A stretch of 59,846 nucleotides of DNA from a phage (GCA_011982905.1 GCA_011982905.1_4767.1), one strand, 5' to 3'; shown: positions 20,532-32,329, counted from the stretch's first letter. Translations and numbers: made by a program. The notes: generated by a model not told the origin, from the sequence alone.

Positions 20532-22517
20532 TTAGGCGTATCCCATGTCTTCGAGATACTTCTCTGCTTTAGCTATATAAGCATCATAATCTATGTCGTC
20601 CGGTACTTTATCCGGTAGCGTCATGATCGGGACACCTCCCGCGCTACCAGCTACACGGTTGCCCGAGTTAGCATAGATTATTTCAGGTGTTTCTTCATTA
20701 GTGCTTAAGTACCAGCGTACAACCTTACCCAAAAATTCGCCATTCCATACCGCGCCGCCTTTTACCGCACGTAGGATAATGAATTTTCTAATATCGTTGC
20801 AATTGCGTATAGTACGAGAAACAGGCGTACCGTGGGCCAAACATTCACATACAGCTTCCATAATAATCTCACCAGTACAGTTCTTTTGAAGACCTGTCTT
20901 TGCGAACCACCCTTTACGCTTAATTTCAACATTTCCTTCCTCGTCAGGTTCTTTTACTGCAACATAGTTATTGACGTTAGCACTGTACAGCTTGTCATAG
21001 TAGTTGGATTCCATTTCAAAACCTGTTACGGATTCCCACCACTTGATCATATTATCAACGAAGTCCTGCATATGGTCCGGATACTTAACCACAATACCAT
21101 CCGTGTTAGCTGAAATTACTTTAACTCCGTTCAGCTCAAACGCTTCAATAAGCATTAACAGCGATAACTGTCCAGTTAATGTAACTTGTATCAATAATTG
21201 CGGAGCGTACAGTACGGACCACATAGACCCCAGCTTACCGAACGATCCGTTGATTACGATCTTCAGAGTATTGGCTGTGTTCTTGTCCCCTGAGTGTTTA
21301 GCTGCAATACGGCGGTCTACAATGCTTTTATAAACACGAAGAAACGCTGGTCCCAACTGCTCAGGGTATAAACCCTGATTAAGAATAATTGAAGGGTAAT
21401 AAGACGTTACGTCAATGTCCCGCTTCTTAATACCCGGCTCTTTACCGTGCCCAGCACACTCTTCTGAGCTATGCAAACCACCAATACCCATACGGTAGAC
21501 ACCGTCCGCAATCTTGATTTCAAGACCTGTTAACGCTGGGGGTAAGCTAACGCCACCGTTATCGCTAACAACAAAACGGCAGTCCCGAACAATATCCAAA
21601 ACACTATTCATCAGAGGTGTTTGAAAACGAATAAAGTCCGGTATGTTATATGCATACTTTGTTCCAGGATAAACTTGTGGGCGCTGCGGACGCACACCAG
21701 TTAACGCTTGAATTTCGTGTTTAATTACGTCTTCTGCAATCTGCGCATCAGAACGTGAACGCAGATCCACACCGTATTCTTGCGACATAATTTCACGAAG
21801 GTGCAAAGGTTCTTGTAATGCAATAAAACATTCTTCTGTCTGTACAAGGTCGTTAATACAGTACCAGCGTACAATTAACATCTGGTCCTGCGTCAACATG
21901 GTATTTGGTTTGAACGGTAAATCCTGCATACGACGAGTATGTACTCGTCCGCCGTATTGTTTCAAACCGCCGGACCCAGGCAGCACTTCCATAATATCGA
22001 TGTGGTTAACGTTCTGCATACGCTTGAGACGGTAACTCTTCAATACATCCGAAGGACGCCAGTCTTCAACGATTATTTTATCGGTCGCGTCTTTAAGCTG
22101 TGCATTAGAACAGCCGTTAAGCGCTAGCGTAGCAATGGGCATATCGTACCCGTTACCGTTAAAGCTCACGATAAGGAAGTTTGTCATTACCCAGTTAAGT
22201 AGCAAACAATTCAAACTACAACCATGATACATTTCGAAGTAGACAACTTTCTTAGTCCTTACTCCGCGGAATGCGATCAAGAAGTAGTTTGGATAACATT
22301 CGATATCGTATACAAGCGGTTCGCGGTTAATCCATGCTTGAATAAGTTCGTCCTGTGTGTACAGGTTGTATTGGAAGTTCCGCGCTTCCTCAAGGTTAGG
22401 CAAATAATCCGGGCGCTCCCAAGTGCGCTCCGGCGGTAAACGTTTAACCTTTTCTTTCTTTGCTTTTGGCTCAGGCGGTAAGTCCTGCCAAAAGAAACCA
22501 ATAGCATCTGTCCGCAT
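20532..22517 (-). CDS. DNA polymerase, family B
   Basis: ATG at 22517 overlaps the upstream stop (TAATG); exonuclease motif YDIECY; polymerase motifs DVTSYYPSII (motif A), KIVINGSFGKLG (motif B) and NTDG (motif C). Confidence 0.85.
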   Translation of the reverse strand: MRTDAIGFFWQDLPPEPKAKKEKVKRLPPERTWERPDYLPNLEEARNFQYNLYTQDELIQAWINREPLVYDIECYPNYFLIAFRGVRTKKVVYFEMYHGCSLNCLLLNWVMTNFLIVSFNGNGYDMPIATLALNGCSNAQLKDATDKIIVEDWRPSDVLKSYRLKRMQNVNHIDIMEVLPGSGGLKQYGGRVHTRRMQDLPFKPNTMLTQDQMLIVRWYCINDLVQTEECFIALQEPLHLREIMSQEYGVDLRSRSDAQIAEDVIKHEIQALTGVRPQRPQVYPGTKYAYNIPDFIRFQTPLMNSVLDIVRDCRFVVSDNGGVSLPPALTGLEIKIADGVYRMGIGGLHSSEECAGHGKEPGIKKRDIDVTSYYPSIILNQGLYPEQLGPAFLRVYKSIVDRRIAAKHSGDKNTANTLKIVINGSFGKLGSMWSVLYAPQLLIQVTLTGQLSLLMLIEAFELNGVKVISANTDGIVVKYPDHMQDFVDNMIKWWESVTGFEMESNYYDKLYSANVNNYVAVKEPDEEGNVEIKRKGWFAKTGLQKNCTGEIIMEAVCECLAHGTPVSRTIRNCNDIRKFIILRAVKGGAVWNGEFLGKVVRWYLSTNEETPEIIYANSGNRVAGSAGGVPIMTLPDKVPDDIDYDAYIAKAEKYLEDMGYA

Positions 22518-23470
22518 TAGACACGTTCTCCAATTAATACACCGCGAAGATTTTCCCCAAAGAATGCGCAAGGTTGCGGATATAAACTAAAGTCCGCAGT
22601 CTTAACCACATTCTCGAGTAATAACAGGATGTCGATATTGTAAACTCCCGTTATTGATCTGTCCTGCAATACGAAGCTTGCACCTTCTGCATCATCGTAA
22701 TGAGTACGCGCTAGACCGTTTTCAATATATACGCGAGGACGATCTTCCGCAAAAGGTTTGATTTTATGCAAGCCCTCAAAAAGACCTGGATCAACAGGAT
22801 GTGCATTGCATTGAACATTTAAAATACGACGTATATCGGGCCACTCCGCATCAATAAGCTGTGTCCGCAACCAGCGACCTTCCGGATAATGAAACGTTAC
22901 ATTATTCTTACTAACCTGAATATGTGTCGGGTTAGCCTTAATGCGCAATATTTCTTTAATTGCAACGGAAGGTATTATGCAGTCTATAGGGAACTGATTG
23001 CCGAACCAGTATTCCGCAATGGTGACGTTATTTGTAGCAAACAGGCTACCGTTATTAATTAGGATGCCACAAGCCCACGCACGAGATGCATCCGAGCCTA
23101 CAAACGGAGCAACGGACTTCACACCATGAACGAAGCGAGCACCGTCTATTTCGTACAAATCGCCTTCAGGGAATACATGCGGAGTTTCTTTATCGATGCA
23201 GCGTATAGCAACACGAAACGGGCCTGACTTAATATTCAGCTTACCGTTAGCCATCATTGTTAGCTGCACTGTTTCATCGCAGTTTGAAATAGCCTTGATC
23301 ATTGGACCCGCTTCGGGCTTACAATCAATATCCAGCTCAATAGGGCTACCCAGTGCAATAACACCGTTAAAGCCTTGTACCTGCCCGTCACGAATAAGAA
23401 AACTGGTAAGCCCTTCTACCAGTTCTTTCTTTGCTACTGAGCCTTGAACAAATTTAAGAGCGTCTAACAT
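22517..23470 (-). CDS. DnaN-like sliding clamp homologue (putative processivity factor)
   Basis: 317 aa; LIDAEWPDIRRIL matches the conserved VDGRFPDYRRVLP segment of bacterial beta clamps as recalled; lies immediately upstream of the polymerase. Confidence 0.5.
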   Translation of the reverse strand: MLDALKFVQGSVAKKELVEGLTSFLIRDGQVQGFNGVIALGSPIELDIDCKPEAGPMIKAISNCDETVQLTMMANGKLNIKSGPFRVAIRCIDKETPHVFPEGDLYEIDGARFVHGVKSVAPFVGSDASRAWACGILINNGSLFATNNVTIAEYWFGNQFPIDCIIPSVAIKEILRIKANPTHIQVSKNNVTFHYPEGRWLRTQLIDAEWPDIRRILNVQCNAHPVDPGLFEGLHKIKPFAEDRPRVYIENGLARTHYDDAEGASFVLQDRSITGVYNIDILLLLENVVKTADFSLYPQPCAFFGENLRGVLIGERV

Positions 23471-23697
23471 TAGCGATCCTCGATTGCTCTAATTGTGGTT
23501 AAGTCTAATTCACAGGTTGGAGGTGATCCATAAAGCCCTATTTGTCTTCCTTGCGCATTAAACCATGTACCGGACTGATCTTTCCATTGCTTAGGGGTCT
23601 TGTGGAGGAATACAACTCTGTTTTCACCGTAGTAATTAATTCTCACTCCTTTGTGAGTGTATTTACGTTTACCTTTTGGTCTTCTTAAGTTAGCCAT
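23470..23697 (-). CDS. hypothetical small basic protein
   Basis: 75 aa, between clamp-like gene and dpdA. Confidence 0.4.
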   Translation of the reverse strand: MANLRRPKGKRKYTHKGVRINYYGENRVVFLHKTPKQWKDQSGTWFNAQGRQIGLYGSPPTCELDLTTIRAIEDR

Positions 23698-24617
23698 CAG
23701 AACAACTCCATTACACGATCACGGAACGTGCCGTCATGGGTAGCATTAATATTTGCAGCAATTACACCATACGCCCATAAATTGAAGGCAGCACGTGATT
23801 CATAGATTGTTGATAACCGTTCGTAAGTAAAACCGTTTTGCTCAAGGTATTTAAGGACAGCATCCTGTTCAATTTCAGTTAGCGTTGAAACATGCTTACC
23901 AAAATGATGGCGGTCTGGTGACTTATCGGACACGCGCATTGGGCCCCACGGAGGAGTAACCACACTTCCAAACGCTGCCGCTTGAATCCAGGAGGATGAG
24001 TCACAGCTATACCACGGATAACGCTCCATGATGGTAGTGGACGTAATACCAAATGCATGAAGCTTAATCTTAGGACGACCGCTACCGTCGCAAATGTATT
24101 TGTCCCACATGCGGTCCAGCCAAGTTTTAAGCGTGCCCGTTGAACGCCCTACCATGCCCCCGATCGTGATATATTCGTAGTTCTTCATGTAATATTCAAG
24201 ATAGCGGAAGTCCTCACCAAAGTGAAAGCACGGTAACGGTTTAGCACCGCGTGCTTCCATTTCAAGCTGATTACGGTATGTTTGCAGCGGATCACCAATA
24301 CCGTCGAGCACCGACGCCATTACAGCACCATCTTCTACCCGCAAAATGTCTTTATTACGCTTGATGTACTCGCAGTATTCAACAATATCAATGTGAGCAC
24401 CCAAAGAGTGCGCAGAGAATGCACCGGAGTCGAGAAACACTTTAGCGCCATCTGCACGCATTTGATCAACATACTTCTGACGCCCAACGTAGTGGTATGA
24501 TTCCAAAATATTTGGAAGGCTATTAACAATGTCTTTTTCCCGATCGTTTAACTTTTCATATCGTTGTTGACCAGCTTTATAGCCGTTGGTATATACTGCC
24601 GCTACATATAACTTCAT
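23697..24617 (-). CDS. dpdA: DpdA, tRNA-guanine transglycosylase-like DNA 7-deazaguanine transglycosylase
   Basis: 306 aa; TGT-like fold motifs (FLDSGAF, ITIGGMVG); clustered with folE-queD-queC-queE. Confidence 0.7.
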   Translation of the reverse strand: MKLYVAAVYTNGYKAGQQRYEKLNDREKDIVNSLPNILESYHYVGRQKYVDQMRADGAKVFLDSGAFSAHSLGAHIDIVEYCEYIKRNKDILRVEDGAVMASVLDGIGDPLQTYRNQLEMEARGAKPLPCFHFGEDFRYLEYYMKNYEYITIGGMVGRSTGTLKTWLDRMWDKYICDGSGRPKIKLHAFGITSTTIMERYPWYSCDSSSWIQAAAFGSVVTPPWGPMRVSDKSPDRHHFGKHVSTLTEIEQDAVLKYLEQNGFTYERLSTIYESRAAFNLWAYGVIAANINATHDGTFRDRVMELF

Positions 24618-24696: not shown

Positions 24697-25335
24697 TTAT
24701 TTACAAGCTTCAAGGAACTCACGGCGCCATTCTTTACCAATATCGCTACCATGCTCCAGTTCTGTAGCGCCCCGGAATGCTTTGGTAATAGTACTCGAGC
24801 CACAAACCTGCTTGATTCCTCTTGACTCCATGCACATATGTTTGGCGTCAATATAAACACATACAGCTTTCGGATTTAAATGCTCTTCAATAGCGTCAGC
24901 AATCTGGTTAGTTAGACGCTCTTGCACTTGCAAGCGACGGCTAAAAGCATCCACAACGCGAGACAGCTTACTGAGCCCCACGATGCGACCGTTAGGAACA
25001 TACCCCACGACAGCGCGACCGATAATAGGGGCCATATGGTGTTCACAATGACTGTAAACAGGAATATCACGGACAATGACCATTTCATTGGTGTTTTCCG
25101 CCCCGTCTTCAAAGGTCTTAAATAACCCAGCAATATCTACATTGTAACCGCCGAACCATGTAGCATAGGCTTTAGCGACACGGTCTGGAGTCTCTGCTAA
25201 TCCTGGACGTAATTTAGTGCAATCTTCAATCTGAGTTAGTAAACTATGCACCGCGCGAGCAATACGAAATTGAGTACCTTCGTTATCAATAGTAAATTTT
25301 GACATGGTTTGCAGTTTCCTTGTTAATGTGGTCAT
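24697..25335 (-). CDS. folE: GTP cyclohydrolase I
   Basis: 212 aa; SHCEHHMAPI and surrounding segment match the FolE active-site region. Confidence 0.85.
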   Translation of the reverse strand: MTTLTRKLQTMSKFTIDNEGTQFRIARAVHSLLTQIEDCTKLRPGLAETPDRVAKAYATWFGGYNVDIAGLFKTFEDGAENTNEMVIVRDIPVYSHCEHHMAPIIGRAVVGYVPNGRIVGLSKLSRVVDAFSRRLQVQERLTNQIADAIEEHLNPKAVCVYIDAKHMCMESRGIKQVCGSSTITKAFRGATELEHGSDIGKEWRREFLEACK

Positions 25336-25336
25336 A

Positions 25337-25840
25337 TTACAGGCTATAGTTTACGTGACATTTCGAAGTTTCTTCGATGGTGCATTCTACAAGTTGAACA
25401 CCATGTTCGTCAAGCAGTTGCGGACCAATTACGTTTACCATGTATGCAGCCAGGTTTTCCGCGGTTGGGTTGAATGGTAAAGATACCATAGAATCCAGAA
25501 AATTTATTTGTTCTTTAGCTGAAATAAACTCCCCACAATCGTCCGCAAAACCAACAACGGACTTTAAACCTTCTATTAAAACATCCTTTTCCCAGTGCAA
25601 AAACTTATGATCCCAATTATTTTCCAACCACTGACAGAGCGTAGTTTTAACCACACTGAAGTCGATAACCCGTCCAACGTCGTCCAGCAAAATACTATTC
25701 ATTTCTTGCGACCCTTTTTTCGGTGCAACCTTAAAGTGAAACTTATAGTTGTGACCATGAAGGTGACGACACTTGCTTTCATGCCCTACAACACGATGTC
25801 CAGCGCAAATTTCATGTGAACGAATTACTGTATAGCTCAT
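25337..25840 (-). CDS. queD: 6-carboxy-5,6,7,8-tetrahydropterin synthase
   Basis: 167 aa; CxxHGHxY motif (CRHLHGHNYKF) typical of QueD/PTPS. Confidence 0.8.
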   Translation of the reverse strand: MSYTVIRSHEICAGHRVVGHESKCRHLHGHNYKFHFKVAPKKGSQEMNSILLDDVGRVIDFSVVKTTLCQWLENNWDHKFLHWEKDVLIEGLKSVVGFADDCGEFISAKEQINFLDSMVSLPFNPTAENLAAYMVNVIGPQLLDEHGVQLVECTIEETSKCHVNYSL

Positions 25841-26382
25841 TTTAATACCTCTTTAGACTGTTCGATTTCTAACGCACGCTGTGCGGATGCAATAATATCT
25901 TTCAAGTCTTCTACCAGACTTTTATGACCGCGTTCGCCAGGCTGCAACGCCTTTTTAATCAAATGTTGTAAAGCTGGGTTAGTTGTCTTCCAAGCTTCCA
26001 AGACATCATACACGTCCACGATGCATTTTACAACATTGCCTTTTTGATCTTTACCATAAATAACTTTCTGATATTTATTCATGGGAATTTTAGATGGTTC
26101 GCATTTCATAAAAATTGCGGTTTTGTCGGTTCGCCAATTGGGCAAACTCCCTTCAATAGCTTGGTTGACGTAATCTTCCGCAACAATATAACGCCAGGCT
26201 ATGATATCCCGAGAACGCACTTCTTCAGGATGTCCTGGGTTTATATCCCAATCCCATCCGTTAAATTGATTCTTAACGTGTGTGCCGTCGCGCAAACGAA
26301 CTTCAAACTTTTCATTGCGAAGAAAGATAGGCATTCCTTTCCCATCGTGCAGGTGCCAGATTTTATTAAGATTATCTTTCAT
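25837..26382 (-). CDS. hypothetical protein inside the 7-deazaguanine cluster
   Basis: ATG at 26382 immediately after the upstream stop; the tracked start at 26427 is TTG; no family recognised. Confidence 0.45.
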   Translation of the reverse strand: MKDNLNKIWHLHDGKGMPIFLRNEKFEVRLRDGTHVKNQFNGWDWDINPGHPEEVRSRDIIAWRYIVAEDYVNQAIEGSLPNWRTDKTAIFMKCEPSKIPMNKYQKVIYGKDQKGNVVKCIVDVYDVLEAWKTTNPALQHLIKKALQPGERGHKSLVEDLKDIIASAQRALEIEQSKEVLK

Positions 26383-26384
26383 TT

Positions 26385-26864
26385 TTACGCTCTCGCTGTA
26401 CGTGAATGAACTTCGTAAACAATCCAAAGGATAGCGGACGCTGTGAACTTACTTAAGCTCATTGCTACCATAGATCCCGGATTAACAATACCTATAATAC
26501 TTAAGAACACAATGGAGTCAATCGGTACAGCTACCAAAGAGCTAATAAATACACGTTGATGAAACGGCTTCTTAGTAATCGTGTATACTACATAGTCCGC
26601 AAACTCACTAAGCGCAAAAGACGCAACGGATGCAACTACAACCGCAGGATTACCGAACACCCAGCTAAGGATGCAACCAACAATCATTGCAGGGATGACG
26701 CCTTTGCCAGCGTTACGCTGTGCGTAATCACGCAGAACAAAGATAAGGCCTACAAAGAAAGCCATCATGGGGACTACGCCAAGTGGCGTATTAAGCATCG
26801 GAAGGTAGGAAAAGCCCAGGTTTACGAATGTAATTGCAGCCAGATAAGCAACGATAAATTTCAT
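26385..26864 (-). CDS. polytopic membrane protein (possible 7-deazapurine precursor transporter)
   Basis: 159 aa with 4-5 hydrophobic segments; sits between queD and queC; transporter role inferred from context only. Confidence 0.45.
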   Translation of the reverse strand: MKFIVAYLAAITFVNLGFSYLPMLNTPLGVVPMMAFFVGLIFVLRDYAQRNAGKGVIPAMIVGCILSWVFGNPAVVVASVASFALSEFADYVVYTITKKPFHQRVFISSLVAVPIDSIVFLSIIGIVNPGSMVAMSLSKFTASAILWIVYEVHSRTARA

Positions 26865-26984
26865 ACTTTTGTTCTCCAGTTTTAACAGCGTTATTCGCTG
26901 GTTGTTGGGTTTAAAAGCTTTAGTAGTATAGTTGGGTTACCGCACCCTAAACAATGCGCTAGCGGTGCGGTTTTCGCGGTAAGA

Positions 26985-27692
26985 TCAAGCTTTGCTAATA
27001 AATTCGCTGTACCCTTTAGCACGAAGTTTACACGCTGGACATTCCCCGCAACCGTATCCCCAGTCATGCAGAGTACGACGGACGCCATTATAGCACGTAT
27101 GGGACTGCTCAATTACTGTGGTTAAGAAACCAACCTTATCCGCCAGCTCAAACGTTTCCGCTTTGTTTAAACGCATAAGCGGAGTAACAAAATGGATATC
27201 TGTTTCATATCCAACGTTTAACGTAGCTTCAAGCAAATCTACAAACTGCTGGCGGCAATCCGGATAACCGCTATAGTCCGTTTCACAGACGCCCGTAACC
27301 ACATATCGCGCGCCAACCTTCTGCGCGTAGGCGTGCGCGGTAGTCAGGAAAAGAGCATTACGGTTGGGCACAAAGCTTGCCGGAAGGTTGTTGTGCTGTT
27401 CGTGATGTTCGTTAACATCACCTTCGTTCCCGATTAAAGCGCTATTGCCAATTTGTTTCAAAGCAGGTAATTCAAAGACAACAAACGGGACATCGTGCTC
27501 TTTACAAATTTGATTAGCACAAGCCAGCTCAATGTTATGACGTTGACCGTATGCAAAACCAATAGCGTAGACCTTATCATAGTTATTAAGTGCAAGACCT
27601 AGGCATGTTACGCTGTCCTGGCCGCCAGACAGGACCACAACGGCGGAGTTGTGATTTTTTACAGGGAATACCAGTTTATCTAGTTTGTTCAT
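26985..27692 (-). CDS. queC: 7-cyano-7-deazaguanine synthase
   Basis: 235 aa; PP-loop VVLSGGQDS; C-terminal Cys cluster CYNG...CGECPAC. Confidence 0.85.
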   Translation of the reverse strand: MNKLDKLVFPVKNHNSAVVVLSGGQDSVTCLGLALNNYDKVYAIGFAYGQRHNIELACANQICKEHDVPFVVFELPALKQIGNSALIGNEGDVNEHHEQHNNLPASFVPNRNALFLTTAHAYAQKVGARYVVTGVCETDYSGYPDCRQQFVDLLEATLNVGYETDIHFVTPLMRLNKAETFELADKVGFLTTVIEQSHTCYNGVRRTLHDWGYGCGECPACKLRAKGYSEFISKA

Positions 27693-27693
27693 T

Positions 27694-27882
27694 TTAGAAA
27701 CCTTTAAGACTAATATTGAGGTTAATGACTACTTGTTCAACTACATCTTCAGAGGTCATCTGACGCTTATGAATTTCAAGCTCCGAGTGTATTTTCTTAG
27801 ATGCAGCACGGCAAATAGCGTCATTCAACTCGTCCTGTAAACGTTGAATCTTCTGCATAAGGATTACAGTCTCTTCATTCAT
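27694..27882 (-). CDS. hypothetical small protein
   Basis: 62 aa between queC and queE; helical charged composition. Confidence 0.4.
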   Translation of the reverse strand: MNEETVILMQKIQRLQDELNDAICRAASKKIHSELEIHKRQMTSEDVVEQVVINLNISLKGF

Positions 27883-28087
27883 CTTCTACACCTTTAATAT
27901 AGCAAGGGTTGATTGTTACGTTTGACATCACAATTGGATGATTGCGCGCCCCGATTGTACTAACATGATTAATATCTAATTCAACATGCACGCCCTGCAT
28001 AGTAGCGTGAGCAATTGCAGAATTAAGTTTTTCTACCAGCTCAGTGATCATTTCCTGATGCTGTTTCGCTTCTTCCAAAGTGATCAT
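27875..28087 (-). CDS. hypothetical small protein
   Basis: 70 aa between queC and queE. Confidence 0.4.
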   Translation of the reverse strand: MITLEEAKQHQEMITELVEKLNSAIAHATMQGVHVELDINHVSTIGARNHPIVMSNVTINPCYIKGVEDE

Positions 28088-28794
28088 TATTCCACCCCAA
28101 TATATTTGTGAACCTGAAGCTGTAACGTGTACCCATGTTTCATACAGCTTTGGACAACTGCTTGGATGTTACTGTGGTTAAGGTCTTTATCCTGCTCGTC
28201 CATTGGCTGTAAATATATCTTACCCTTGAACCCCTTCGGAGGTCTAGCAATAAATGGGGTAGCCTGATGATCTAATGCCTGAAGCGGTAAACCGTCTTCC
28301 ACGTTTACACAGCACGCTTTAAGCACATATTTAAATGCGTTTGCGCGGTACAGCACAGTAGGATGAATTTTTGTAGTCTTAGGACTGCATACAATGACAG
28401 GTAGCTGGGAAAAGTTTTTAGGTAAAGGCATAGACCCATTCGTTTCAATTTGTACAACATACCCGCGCGATAACAGTTGTTCGACAAATGGGTTAATTTG
28501 CTGGCGGAATGGTTCACCCCCAGTAATAACCACAAGTGAGGTGCTATTGCCAGACTCTAGTTTACGGCTTTCAATCAAGCGCATGATATCAACAATGTGA
28601 TAAAGAGAACGACCAACAGTATAATCCGTATCACATCCTGGGCATTGCAGGTTACACCCAGCAAGACGCACAAATACAGCAGGCTGGCCGCAGAATGGAC
28701 CTTCACCCTGAATGGTAGAGAATACCGAATGCACGTCTAAATACATATCATTTTCTTTAGAACGAGACTCGGGAGCTTGTTGATTAATATTCAT
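28087..28794 (-). CDS. queE: 7-carboxy-7-deazaguanine synthase (radical SAM)
   Basis: 235 aa; QGEGPFCGQPAVFVRLAGCNLQCPGCDT contains the CxxxCxxC radical-SAM motif; AGAGGA RBS. Confidence 0.85.
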   Translation of the reverse strand: MNINQQAPESRSKENDMYLDVHSVFSTIQGEGPFCGQPAVFVRLAGCNLQCPGCDTDYTVGRSLYHIVDIMRLIESRKLESGNSTSLVVITGGEPFRQQINPFVEQLLSRGYVVQIETNGSMPLPKNFSQLPVIVCSPKTTKIHPTVLYRANAFKYVLKACCVNVEDGLPLQALDHQATPFIARPPKGFKGKIYLQPMDEQDKDLNHSNIQAVVQSCMKHGYTLQLQVHKYIGVE

Positions 28795-30346: not shown

Positions 30347-32329
30347 TTAGAACGGAACGTAATCCGGATCATCTACTTGCACAGGATTAACCACATTGTT
30401 CACCGTTATACCTTGCGTATTCTGCGAAACAATATCGTCCCAGCTCACATCATCGTTATAGCTCGGACCTTCGGTTGTTCCATCCTGCCCGTATACTTTA
30501 ACCTGAACAGCTTCATCCTCCTGTGGTGCTTCAAACTTACCGAAACACGTACCATCATAATCATAGTTCAATATCTCAGGCCATTTCTTATTGGTATGAA
30601 CTTTGATGTACTTTGGTGTTTTGAGCATTGAAGCAACTTCAAGAGCTTCTTCAATAGTTTGTGGTAAAGGAAGATGCGTCCTTTTCTTCCACCATGCAAC
30701 CGCTTTACGACCTGCCCAGTCGCCATGAAGCAGAGCTACCCATTCGCTGAATATTTTACTACCGCAATAATAAGTCACCTTCATTGTTGGAGGTTTGGAG
30801 CTGTCATTGCGTTTAGTGTGCTTCGCATAAGTAACATGCGTAACTTTAAAGTCTTCAACTACCGGAATGTCCTGCTTGATCAATGCTTCGGTACTTGCTG
30901 CCTTTTTAAGTTTGGTCTGGAACTTAAACTCATGACCGCAAAATCCTTCTTTAACATAATCCCTTCCACGTAGTCTGAAGCCCTTCAAATATAATTGTTG
31001 AACTTGTTCCTGTGTAACGCTGTCCATTGGGATTGGTGCAAAGCCGCCGCAATAGCGAGCAGATGCATGATTATACGACCCGCACACATCGCATTCTTTA
31101 ACCGGAGCAGTGCCAGCACCTTTTTCACCCGGGCGCTTGGGTTTAACAGGGTCGTTAATAGGGCCCAAACGGCGCGTATTACCGCTGAAATCCAGTACAA
31201 GGCAGTTTTGCTTGGGGCTTGCTGCAATAGCTTGCAAACGGCCTTCCTGCGTAGAAAGATCAAAGCCCTCCGCGTACACCGGACGCGTACCGCGACCCAG
31301 CATCTGAACCCATAGCATCGCCGACGCAGTGGGGCGAAGCATAATAATCAGATCGAGCATTGGATGGTCGAAACCTGTGGTTAAGACGTTGTTGTTCGTC
31401 AGCGCTCGAAACTCTCCACGCTTGAACTTTTCAATAATTTCATCACGCTCTTTTGCATCGAGCTTTGAGTGAATACATCCACAACTAATACCCATATCGT
31501 TCAGCATATCACACGCATCTTTAGCGTGTTCAATACCAGAACAAAATATAAGCCAGCTTTGACGGTCTTCACCACATTCAATGGCTTCCTCAAGTGCGCG
31601 GAGTGTTGCGTCGTCGCGGTTCACCGCACTTTGCAGCTCGCTCTGGATAAACTCACCGCCACGTTTTCCTACCCCATTGAGGTCCAGTTCCATCTTTGTA
31701 CGTTTTGGCACAACCGGAAGCAGATACCCTTGCTCCAGGAACCAGTTAAAAGCTTCAGGAGTGGTTGCATCAAACGTTACTTTATCAAATAAAGCGTCAT
31801 CGTCTTCGTTTTCCTTGACAATTGAACCATAGCCCAGTCGATAAGGTGTAGCGGTAAGACCGATGATTTTTAAATACGGGTTAACTTCACGCAATGCTGC
31901 AAAGAACTTCTTATACATTGTTGCATCACGTGGACTAATAAGGTGCGCTTCATCCACAAAGATTAGATCAACCTTACCGAACTTTTTGGGATGTTTGGCA
32001 ACGGAAGCAATCCCTGCGAAGGTGATAAGATTGTAAACTTCTTTACGCTTCAAACCTGCGCTGTAAATACCCGCTGGCGCTTCAGGCCAGACTTTCATTA
32101 ATTTATCATAGTTTTGCGCGATCAACTCTTTGACGTGAGTTAACATCATTACGCGCTGGTTTGGATACCATTTATAGAGCAGATCGAGGAACCCCGCGAT
32201 AACGAGCGATTTTCCTGTCCCTGTTGGTAACAGGATCAAAGGGTTCCCCGCGTTACCCTTTTCAGCATCAAAATAGCGAAATACGCTATAAACTGCTTCC
32301 TGTTGATAATCGCGGAGATGCATAATCAA
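30347..32329 (-). CDS. superfamily-2 DNA helicase (DEAH-type)
   Basis: 660 aa; Walker A LPTGTGKS; DEAH box FVDEAH; motif III TATP; C-terminal Cys pair CDVCG. Confidence 0.75.
   Translation of the reverse strand: MIMHLRDYQQEAVYSVFRYFDAEKGNAGNPLILLPTGTGKSLVIAGFLDLLYKWYPNQRVMMLTHVKELIAQNYDKLMKVWPEAPAGIYSAGLKRKEVYNLITFAGIASVAKHPKKFGKVDLIFVDEAHLISPRDATMYKKFFAALREVNPYLKIIGLTATPYRLGYGSIVKENEDDDALFDKVTFDATTPEAFNWFLEQGYLLPVVPKRTKMELDLNGVGKRGGEFIQSELQSAVNRDDATLRALEEAIECGEDRQSWLIFCSGIEHAKDACDMLNDMGISCGCIHSKLDAKERDEIIEKFKRGEFRALTNNNVLTTGFDHPMLDLIIMLRPTASAMLWVQMLGRGTRPVYAEGFDLSTQEGRLQAIAASPKQNCLVLDFSGNTRRLGPINDPVKPKRPGEKGAGTAPVKECDVCGSYNHASARYCGGFAPIPMDSVTQEQVQQLYLKGFRLRGRDYVKEGFCGHEFKFQTKLKKAASTEALIKQDIPVVEDFKVTHVTYAKHTKRNDSSKPPTMKVTYYCGSKIFSEWVALLHGDWAGRKAVAWWKKRTHLPLPQTIEEALEVASMLKTPKYIKVHTNKKWPEILNYDYDGTCFGKFEAPQEDEAVQVKVYGQDGTTEGPSYNDDVSWDDIVSQNTQGITVNNVVNPVQVDDPDYVPF

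Follow-up and report, generated by a model that had tools for sequence, protein, structure and literature searches.

The proofreading family-B polymerase Pol II of Escherichia coli binds the host beta clamp through a short C-terminal peptide, QLGLF, whose sequence was confirmed here. Among phages, the closest described arrangement is the clamp and polymerase gene pair of Seuratvirus, Nonagvirus (phage 9g) and Pantoea phage Vid5 (ORF30/ORF29). In the Seuratvirus coliphage CAjan, gp33 and gp32 are labelled "DNA polymerase processivity factor" and "DNA polymerase" in RefSeq, and "DNA polymerase protein beta subunit" and "DNA polymerase B" in GenBank; the pair is likewise annotated in Seurat, 9g, Vid5 and many further records. 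The 2018 paper on Vid5 reports DNA polymerase B followed by a "DNA polymerase beta subunit", the latter with an HHpred probability of 100% to DnaN 3T0P (PMC6266253). In this study, we report in silico analyses of the corresponding pair at positions 20532..23470 of a 59,846-nucleotide stretch of phage DNA (GCA_011982905.1; hereafter the window), in which a homologue of the bacterial beta clamp (DnaN) is followed by a family-B DNA polymerase whose N-terminus carries a conserved peptide, predicted to be disordered, that may tether it to the clamp.

The two genes and their order are the same as in the phages named above, with no material difference. The window belongs to a Seuratvirus, about 95% identical to CAjan. 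The region showed 94–95% DNA identity to Seuratvirus coliphages (KS_A3, slur01, CAjan and about 30 others), the clamp protein being 99.7% identical to that of CAjan and the polymerase up to 99.8% identical to that of KurtStettler. A first-pass annotation of the window had implied that a family-B polymerase beside a bacterial-type clamp is unusual. This does not hold, as the pair is widely annotated and published and Pol II itself uses the beta clamp. The pairing is therefore not new and is ordinary for Queuovirinae phages; as first noted, it is a rediscovery of an annotated gene pair and changes nothing. The literature found on these phages consisted of genome-annotation papers, with no experimental work on their clamps, and no mention of terminal peptides or of the lack of a clamp loader was found in the papers and records on the CAjan-type gene pair. 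The N-terminal peptide of the polymerase, the absence of a loader and the C-terminal tip of the neighbouring DNA-modifying enzyme DpdA appear not to have been described before.

With respect to Pol II and its clamp, the phage pair has in common a proofreading family-B polymerase, a three-domain beta-type clamp and, as proposed here, a short terminal peptide as the link between them. It differs in the place of this peptide, which in the phage stands at the N-terminus, has no Gln and is longer (RxDxxGΦFWxD), and in that no cognate loader is recognizable in the window. With the T4/RB69 system (gp43, gp45 and gp44/62) it shares a phage family-B replicase, a phage clamp and, as proposed here, a terminal-peptide tether; the T4 clamp also recruits late transcription factors, which is a precedent for a tool-belt role. 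In contrast to the window clamp, gp45 is a two-domain, trimeric clamp of the PCNA type (template modelling, TM, score of about 0.38 to the window clamp model), T4 encodes its own loader and the T4 polymerase peptide is C-terminal.

Fold and family of the clamp and the polymerase

The 317-amino-acid (aa) open reading frame (ORF) upstream of the polymerase is almost certainly a beta-clamp homologue. It matched PHROG 947 ("DNA polymerase processivity factor") over residues 1–317 (E-value 3.6e-81). Its AlphaFold model, built on 47 homologous sequences, had a predicted local distance difference test (pLDDT) score of 93 and a predicted TM score of 0.87, and consisted of three helix-sheet repeats with six helices in all. 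The best 50 Foldseek matches of this model in the PDB were without exception bacterial DnaN clamps; the alignments spanned about 360 columns, which is the full three-domain length, with query-normalised TM scores of 0.77–0.84, 14–17% identity and E-values of about 4e-20. The first-pass annotation had proposed a bacterial-type clamp homologue, to be checked for three domains, and the model agrees with it, matching DnaN along its full length and not PCNA or gp45. A clamp of the PCNA/gp45 type (two-domain protomer, trimer) was ruled out by the three domains, gp45-type viral clamps giving TM scores of 0.36–0.39. The protein is about 50 residues shorter than E. coli beta (317 vs. 366 aa) and both are acidic (isoelectric points of 5.56 and 5.25, respectively). 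Beta-type clamps are frequent in predicted viral structures.

The sequence models of bacterial DnaN were reached at low scores. TIGR00663 (NCBIfam dnaN) matched with an E-value of 4e-8 and 32.6 bits, below its cut-off of 137.65, and of the dnaN Pfam models PF00712, PF02767 and PF02768 only PF02767 was matched (22.2 bits vs. a cut-off of 27). Judged by these scores, the protein is a distant homologue and not a dnaN equivalog. A profile of the 47 homologues retrieved 2,931 clusters (50% identity) from a library of 1.84 billion proteins; since this is far under the number expected were bacterial DnaN generally reached, the family looks like a distinct, mostly phage subfamily.

In E. coli beta, residues T172–L177 form a wall of the peptide-binding pocket, which is also lined by the C-terminus, YVVMPMRL. 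The segments of the phage clamp equivalent to T172–L177, P242–V247 and the C-terminal strand (Table 1) were among the most conserved of the family, with different residues (ATNNV, WPD and RGxIxGxR, respectively), which would fit an altered peptide specificity. Across the 47 clamp homologues there was no variation at A145, T146, N147 and N148, which belong to a wider segment SxFATNNV, at W210 and P211 in the equivalent of P242–V247, or at R309, G310 and G314 in the C-terminal strand. The likeness of the segment LIDAEWPDIRRIL to KLVDGRFPDYRRVL of E. coli beta, claimed in the first-pass annotation, was recovered by both phmmer and hhalign. It must be noted that when the clamp alignment was compared by hhalign with the E. 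coli DnaN sequence alone, the probability was 87.8% and the match extended over domains I–II only, so that the equivalence of domain III comes from the fold match and from an alignment of the C-termini by eye.

In two relatives, the clamps of phage Ab26 (locus L083, 4842..6005) and of locus L034, there are C-terminal extensions that end in DDIPF, a look-alike of the SSB tail; the window clamp has no such extension. The C-terminal tail of the E. coli single-stranded DNA-binding protein (SSB), DDDIPF, recruits partner proteins, and the DDIPF tails might attract host proteins with affinity for SSB tails, the chi subunit of the clamp loader being one example.

The assignment of the polymerase to family B in the first-pass annotation was borne out by fold, motifs and PHROG 1252, and the motifs A, B and C that it quoted were all found within the gene (Table 1). 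The match to PHROG 1252 ("DNA polymerase") covered almost the full length of the protein (E-value 4e-228). The AlphaFold model had a pLDDT of 91.4 and its top 50 Foldseek matches in the PDB were all family-B polymerases (archaeal PolB, E. coli Pol II and Pol alpha), with E-values of about 3e-16; a phmmer search against the PDB gave 1s5j (E-value 1.9e-5) and Pol II (E-value 0.009). The polymerase did not match PF00136 (DNA_pol_B), scored 14.5 bits against PF10108 (cut-off 24) and reached the NCBIfam Pol II models with 23–36 bits, far under their cut-offs. In terms of these models, it is a divergent phage subfamily, represented by PHROG 1252. Motifs A and B read DVTSYYPS and KIVINGSFG, against DxxSLYPS and KxxxNSxYG in family B at large. 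Motif C retains one Asp (D473), the first Asp being replaced by Asn. The key residues of the exonuclease and polymerase motifs were unvaried in 41 homologues that are 54–92% identical to the window polymerase outside the N-terminal peptide. A protein-primed family-B polymerase was briefly weighed and rejected, since the phage has a primase and the nearest folds are RNA-primed family-B polymerases. In addition, the tblastn match of the polymerase was broken near residue 590 in six loci (L032, L034, L053, L073, L074 and L076), with about 180 extra nucleotides (nt) between the pieces, which suggests an insertion in the thumb region of some relatives.

The TAATG overlap between the clamp stop codon and the polymerase start codon, reported in the first-pass annotation, was confirmed. 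A mechanical ORF list begins the polymerase at a TTG at position 22571; the start codon that is conserved, an ATG at position 22517, is also the one annotated for CAjan gp32. To set the pair in a wider frame, 80 viral-metagenome loci (IMG/VR) with clamp homologues 45–99% identical were fetched, 78 of them with sequence downstream of the clamp. A polymerase gene was present 3' of the clamp in all 78, and in 12 of the 12 distant annotated phages examined it lay downstream of the clamp, either abutting it or at a distance of up to about 165 nt. An overlap of a few nt between clamp stop and polymerase start was found in about 46 of 77 related loci (the scripted start calls are approximate, the exact values being −1/−4). 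By tblastn, the clamp family was present in 363 phage records, including Queuovirinae, Septimatrevirus, Kleczkowskavirus, Lokivirus, Rosemountvirus, Siaravirus and others. The clamp is quite probably the processivity factor of the polymerase beside it.

In eight loci (L008, L026, L027, L055, L063, L066, L067 and L077) inserts of 350–800 nt part the two genes; that of L026 (4951..5403) has, by eye, the look of a homing endonuclease.

Table 1. Features of the clamp and polymerase locus and of the adjoining upstream genes, with positions in the window.
Feature	Position	Strand	Basis or remark
Family-B DNA polymerase with 3'-5' exonuclease, 661 aa	20532..22517	-	Fold, motifs, PHROG 1252
Polymerase motif C SANTDG, residues 469-474	21096..21113	-	NTDG replaces usual DTDS
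Polymerase motif B KIVINGSFGKLG, residues 419-430	21228..21263	-	
Polymerase motif A DIDVTSYYPSII, residues 367-378	21384..21419	-	
Exonuclease motif III YCINDL, polymerase residues 219-224			
Exonuclease motif II NGNGYD, polymerase residues 120-125			
Exonuclease motif I VYDIECYPNY (YDIECY, residues 70-75)	22284..22313	-	D71, E73 unvaried
Variable Lys/Pro-rich linker and second conserved element PPERTWERPDYLPNL	22386..22475	-	W33, Y38, L39, P40 unvaried
N-terminal peptide MRTDAIGFFWQDLP, candidate clamp-binding tether	22476..22517	-	Conservation and predicted disorder
TAATG stop/start overlap, clamp/polymerase	22515..22519	-	Polymerase ATG (22517..22515) has one base in common with clamp TAA
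Beta-type (DnaN-like) sliding clamp homologue, 317 aa, three domains	22517..23470	-	Fold match and PHROG 947
Clamp C-terminal strand RGVLIGERV	22520..22546	-	Family consensus RGAIxGMR; like E. coli beta YVVMPMRL, aligned by eye
Clamp WPDIRRIL, residues 210-217	22820..22843	-	phmmer and hhalign to E. coli beta FPDYRRVL
Clamp ATNNVTI, residues 145-151	23018..23038	-	hhalign to E. coli beta ATDGHRL (residues 171-177)
Basic ORF, 75 aa, between DpdA and clamp	23470..23697	-	One-base overlap with each neighbour; PHROG 38388, unknown function
DpdA-type DNA 7-deazaguanine transglycosylase, 306 aa	23697..24617	-	PHROG 887 (E-value 8e-95); relatives annotated DpdA or 7-deazaguanosine-inserting enzyme
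DpdA C-terminal tip MELF-COOH, candidate clamp-binding peptide	23700..23711	-	Family consensus [QM]-E-L-F; window end ...RDRVMELF

The N-terminal peptide of the polymerase

The first-pass annotation had pointed to the C-terminus of the polymerase as the place of a clamp-binding motif. None is present there, the protein ending in ...YLEDMGYA, and the candidate sits at the N-terminus. The first residues follow the consensus MRxDxxG[FLM]FWxD, in which R2, D4, G7, F9, W10 and D12 were unvaried among the 41 homologues and also in 49 distinct motifs. After the Lys/Pro-rich stretch comes the second conserved element, with the consensus PPxxxWxxPxYLPxL. In the AlphaFold model, the pLDDT was below 50 for residues 1–13, climbed from 54 to 87 along the linker and second element, and exceeded 85 in the rest of the protein. 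Lack of variation combined with a predicted lack of structure is typical of short docking peptides. The pattern G[FLM]FW had a single match in the six-frame translation of the window, which is the polymerase N-terminus itself. The canonical beta-clamp motif, QL[SD]LF or QLxLxL, is a pentapeptide at a terminus or on a linker that begins with Gln, has a hydrophobic second residue and carries Leu-Phe at positions 4–5. The peptide core, [AS]-[ILV]-G-[FLM]-F, resembles the Q-L-G-L-F of Pol II, being A-I-G-F-F in the window and also S-L-G-L-F in relatives.

Among the 80 loci, the peptide was found wherever the clamp was followed by available sequence: an ORF starting with it was present in all 78 such loci, with a GΦFWx[DE] core in 76 and the near-variants MRSDSFGMFWTN and MRFDSIGLWWED in the other two. 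Family-B polymerases account for at least 60 of these ORFs and family-A polymerases for at least eight (L026, L050, L060, L065, L066, L068, L069 and L071), the latter recognized by the motifs NINFGLIYG and VHDEL and by Pfam DNA_pol_A (E-value 1.6e-63); a further family-A case is L102 (7868..9880). The family-A versions have the same first 45 residues or so, MRFDAIGMFWEDVP...PPIPDTGWRPPTYLPDL, and the isolated Stenotrophomonas phage ply2008005c likewise has a clamp and a peptide-led family-A polymerase. Given that cores of both families stand behind the same peptide, the N-terminal module and the clamp have persisted through a swap of the polymerase core, and the peptide thus goes with the clamp module and not with the catalytic domain. 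No clamp was detectable for four PolB relatives, which begin right at exonuclease motif I and have no such terminal peptides; the whole genome was scanned for Klebsiella KpV52 and Vibrio 159E43-1b, and 3 kb on either side of the polymerase for Proteus 2207-N35 and Enterococcus IME-EFm1.

Four loci (L020, L024, L029 and L049) have an insertion of about 45 residues (e.g., ...EEGWVQVFPGFWAEEW...) that separates the N-terminal peptide from the PPExxW element. The motifs on either side are retained, so the linker tolerates a large insertion.

The termini of the polymerases of distant clamp-bearing phages are given in Table 2. The C-termini of the Pfeifenkraut and Suba polymerases are Qxx[LM]F-like; that of Ab26 is aromatic and has no Gln. 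Taken as a whole, the conservation, the predicted disorder and the co-occurrence with the clamp make it marginally probable that the N-terminal peptide is the tether of the polymerase to the clamp.

Table 2. Polymerase family and terminal sequences in distant phages that carry the clamp.
Phage	Polymerase	N-terminus	C-terminus
RHEph05	Family B	MSRWDTTGLFWDD	Without aromatic tail
Siara	Family B	MGLFWDE	Without tail
Halfdan	Family B	MFFDDL	Without terminal motif
Pfeifenkraut	Family B	MFFDTDEF	KKQATMFF
Suba	Family B	MFKFDAAEF	AQPTLFA
Ab26	Family B	None evident	TAALSFF
PmaS-R3	Family A	LFFDDA	None
LPSEYT	Family A	MSFLFDSFE	None

DpdA and the replication module

DpdA inserts 7-deazaguanine into DNA after replication. 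Its gene heads a string of four genes (DpdA, the 75-aa ORF, clamp and polymerase; 20532..24617, minus strand) with successive one-base overlaps, which suggests that genes for modification and replication are translated as a coupled unit. Many related loci lack the 75-aa ORF, and there DpdA directly abuts the clamp. Of the 80 clamp loci, 78 had a DpdA homologue, encoded on the clamp strand, whose stop codon lay at or upstream of the clamp start.

The frequent endings of these 78 DpdA proteins were [IV]QELF (28), [QVI]MELF (12), [AV]QQLF (7) and LQDLFDE (7). Among 69 distinct sequences, the information content was 1.0–1.8 bits at residues 293–302, the conserved Phe 298 excepted, and 3.0, 3.1, 4.3 and 4.1 bits at residues 303–306, a profile that reads as a conserved tip behind a variable 10-residue linker. 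A sequence search of the PDB found no solved structure for DpdA, and the putative placement of the MELF tip outside the fold comes from this conservation profile. The ending Q-M-E-L-F of relatives fits the canonical QL[SD]LF well; other relatives have V-Q-E-L-F, and the window has V-M-E-L-F. Among other phages with the clamp, DpdA ends in QMELF in ply2008005c and in QMELLG in Achromobacter phage ART, and the DpdA-like gp045 of RHEph05 ends in EQRLF. The tip is missing from four DpdAs linked to ParB, which come from actinophages and a Cellulophaga phage and have no annotated clamp within 1.2 kb. No paper linking DpdA to a sliding clamp was found in a literature search. The pairing of PCNA with DNMT1 offers an analogy, for DpdA only, in that a DNA-modifying enzyme carries a short clamp-binding peptide and modification follows the fork; it differs in clamp type, enzyme chemistry and domain of life, and the link of DpdA consists of a conserved tip and a gene neighbourhood. 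Recruitment of DpdA by the clamp is put forward as tentative, and we consider it somewhat less probable than its absence.

Directly upstream of DpdA (24697..28794, minus strand) lies a complete preQ0 pathway with FolE, QueD, a putative preQ0 transporter, QueC and QueE, typical of Queuovirinae with 7-deazaguanine-modified DNA.

The replication module of the window comprises a primase of the archaeo-eukaryotic type (780 aa, with some PHROG matches to primase/helicase and helicase families), a superfamily 2 (SF2) helicase, an SSB of the DUF669 type, Sak4, a Cas4-like nuclease, a ligase, an RNase H, a dUTPase and RusA. Searches with PHROG and Pfam profiles found no AAA+ clamp loader among the remaining ORFs of the replication module, and a strict scan of the window for G-x4-GK[ST] returned only the terminase, Sak4 and one ORF near position 451. 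A recognizable clamp loader is absent from the window; therefore, loading would proceed through the host gamma/tau complex, by spontaneous opening of the ring or through another phage replisome protein.

The SF2 helicase (30347..32329, minus strand) ends in ...VQVDDPDYVPF-COOH, an acidic tip like the DDDIPF tail of E. coli SSB.

Proposed mechanism and alternatives

We consider it reasonably probable that these elements work together as follows. Each clamp protomer, with its three DnaN-like domains, would presumably join a second one head to tail to form a dimeric ring, which would hold the family-B replicative polymerase on the DNA, the two proteins being translated in step. The disordered N-terminal peptide of the polymerase, on its Lys/Pro-rich linker, would sit in the hydrophobic pocket where domains II and III of the clamp meet, by analogy with the C-terminal QLGLF of Pol II on the host beta clamp. 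Of the two pockets that a dimeric ring offers, the other could accommodate DpdA through its [QM]ELF tip, and this would couple 7-deazaguanine modification to freshly replicated DNA. The clamp would be loaded by one of the three routes given above. In its most complete form, a loader-less tool-belt clamp on which the polymerase tether was kept through the exchange of family-B and family-A cores and on which DpdA, docked in the second pocket, makes modification fork-coupled, the proposal is somewhat unlikely.

Several observations weigh against the proposed mechanism. The clamp reaches bacterial DnaN sequence models only under their curated cut-offs, and either the polymerase peptide or the DpdA tip could equally bind the host beta clamp. 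With respect to DpdA, all tip-bearing proteins fall in a single clade and the controls without a clamp come from distant subfamilies; phylogeny and function are thus confounded and the control is a weak one. Other points bear on the partner of the polymerase peptide: A-I-G-F-F fits positions 2–5 of the canonical QL[SD]LF and has no Gln, and these phages likewise conserve their genes for helicase, primase and SSB, the rest of the module thus co-varying with the clamp, so that the co-occurrence of the peptide is not clamp-specific. In addition, Pfeifenkraut and Suba have both an MFFD-type N-terminal peptide and a clamp-motif-like C-terminal tail, so that the peptide at the N-terminus might have another partner. 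It is conceivable, then, that the clamp is a ring but that the N-terminal peptide binds the primase-helicase, the SF2 helicase or SSB, the clamp being contacted elsewhere on the polymerase. We regard this as unlikely, because the window polymerase, with its C-terminal DMGYA, has no alternative terminal clamp motif and the core xLG[FLM]F is close to the QLGLF of Pol II. Moreover, the lineages with a full GΦFWxD peptide (Queuovirinae, RHEph05 and Siara) have no C-terminal tail and those with a C-terminal tail have a reduced N-terminal peptide or none, an alternation that is expected if the tether moved between the two ends of the polymerase.

The absence of a loader from the window would also be accounted for if the clamp-derived protein formed no closed ring and acted as an accessory subunit that binds the polymerase and the emerging duplex directly, in the manner of herpesvirus UL42 or the clamp domain of PhiKZ Rhc, and thus needed no loading. 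UL42 has a basic DNA-binding face, and the window clamp is acidic overall, like E. coli beta. It also retains all three DnaN domains, with a TM score of about 0.83 to ring-forming clamps, and its pocket segments and C-terminal strand are conserved; the predicted three-domain fold, which is intact, and the acidic character argue for a ring. Host clamp loaders, furthermore, are supplied by the infected cell. Translational coupling does suit a stoichiometric complex, and UL42 and the Rhc clamp domain are, as the window clamp, viral clamp-fold processivity proteins with no virus-encoded loader. In PhiKZ, there is the precedent of a phage family-B polymerase with a single clamp-derived subunit, the Rhc clamp domain, which acts without a closed ring (PMC13648687). 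Both, however, are single non-ring subunits with enlarged DNA-binding surfaces, whereas the window clamp keeps a three-domain half-ring with its pocket segments, and the non-ring alternative is in our opinion quite improbable. Still less probable is that the clamp is mainly a hub or decoy, recruiting DpdA or other phage enzymes or soaking up host clamp-binding proteins to stop host replication. The clamp-motif-like tip of DpdA and its place at the head of the overlapping gene string would agree with such a function, and the SSB-like DDIPF tails of the Ab26 and L034 clamps hint at extra recruiting roles. Nevertheless, there was no sign of host-directed toxicity, and the clamp also adjoins the polymerase in regions examined that have no annotated DpdA (Ab26, Halfdan, LPSEYT and Siara); therefore, the link to the polymerase is the constant one.

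The terminal peptides, which are conserved, specific and directly testable, raise the interest of the locus somewhat. The N-terminal peptide may define how polymerase and beta clamp engage in a large group of phage polymerases, given a polymerase family of at least 7,960 database relatives and a clamp family of about 2,900 clusters at 50% identity. The presence of family-A and family-B cores behind the same candidate tether is a natural experiment in replisome modularity. The link between clamp and DpdA, if true, would explain how a post-replicative base-exchange enzyme reaches new DNA soon enough to shield it from restriction. Finally, the loading of a beta-type ring without a phage loader would bear on the dependence of these phages on their host and hence on their host range.

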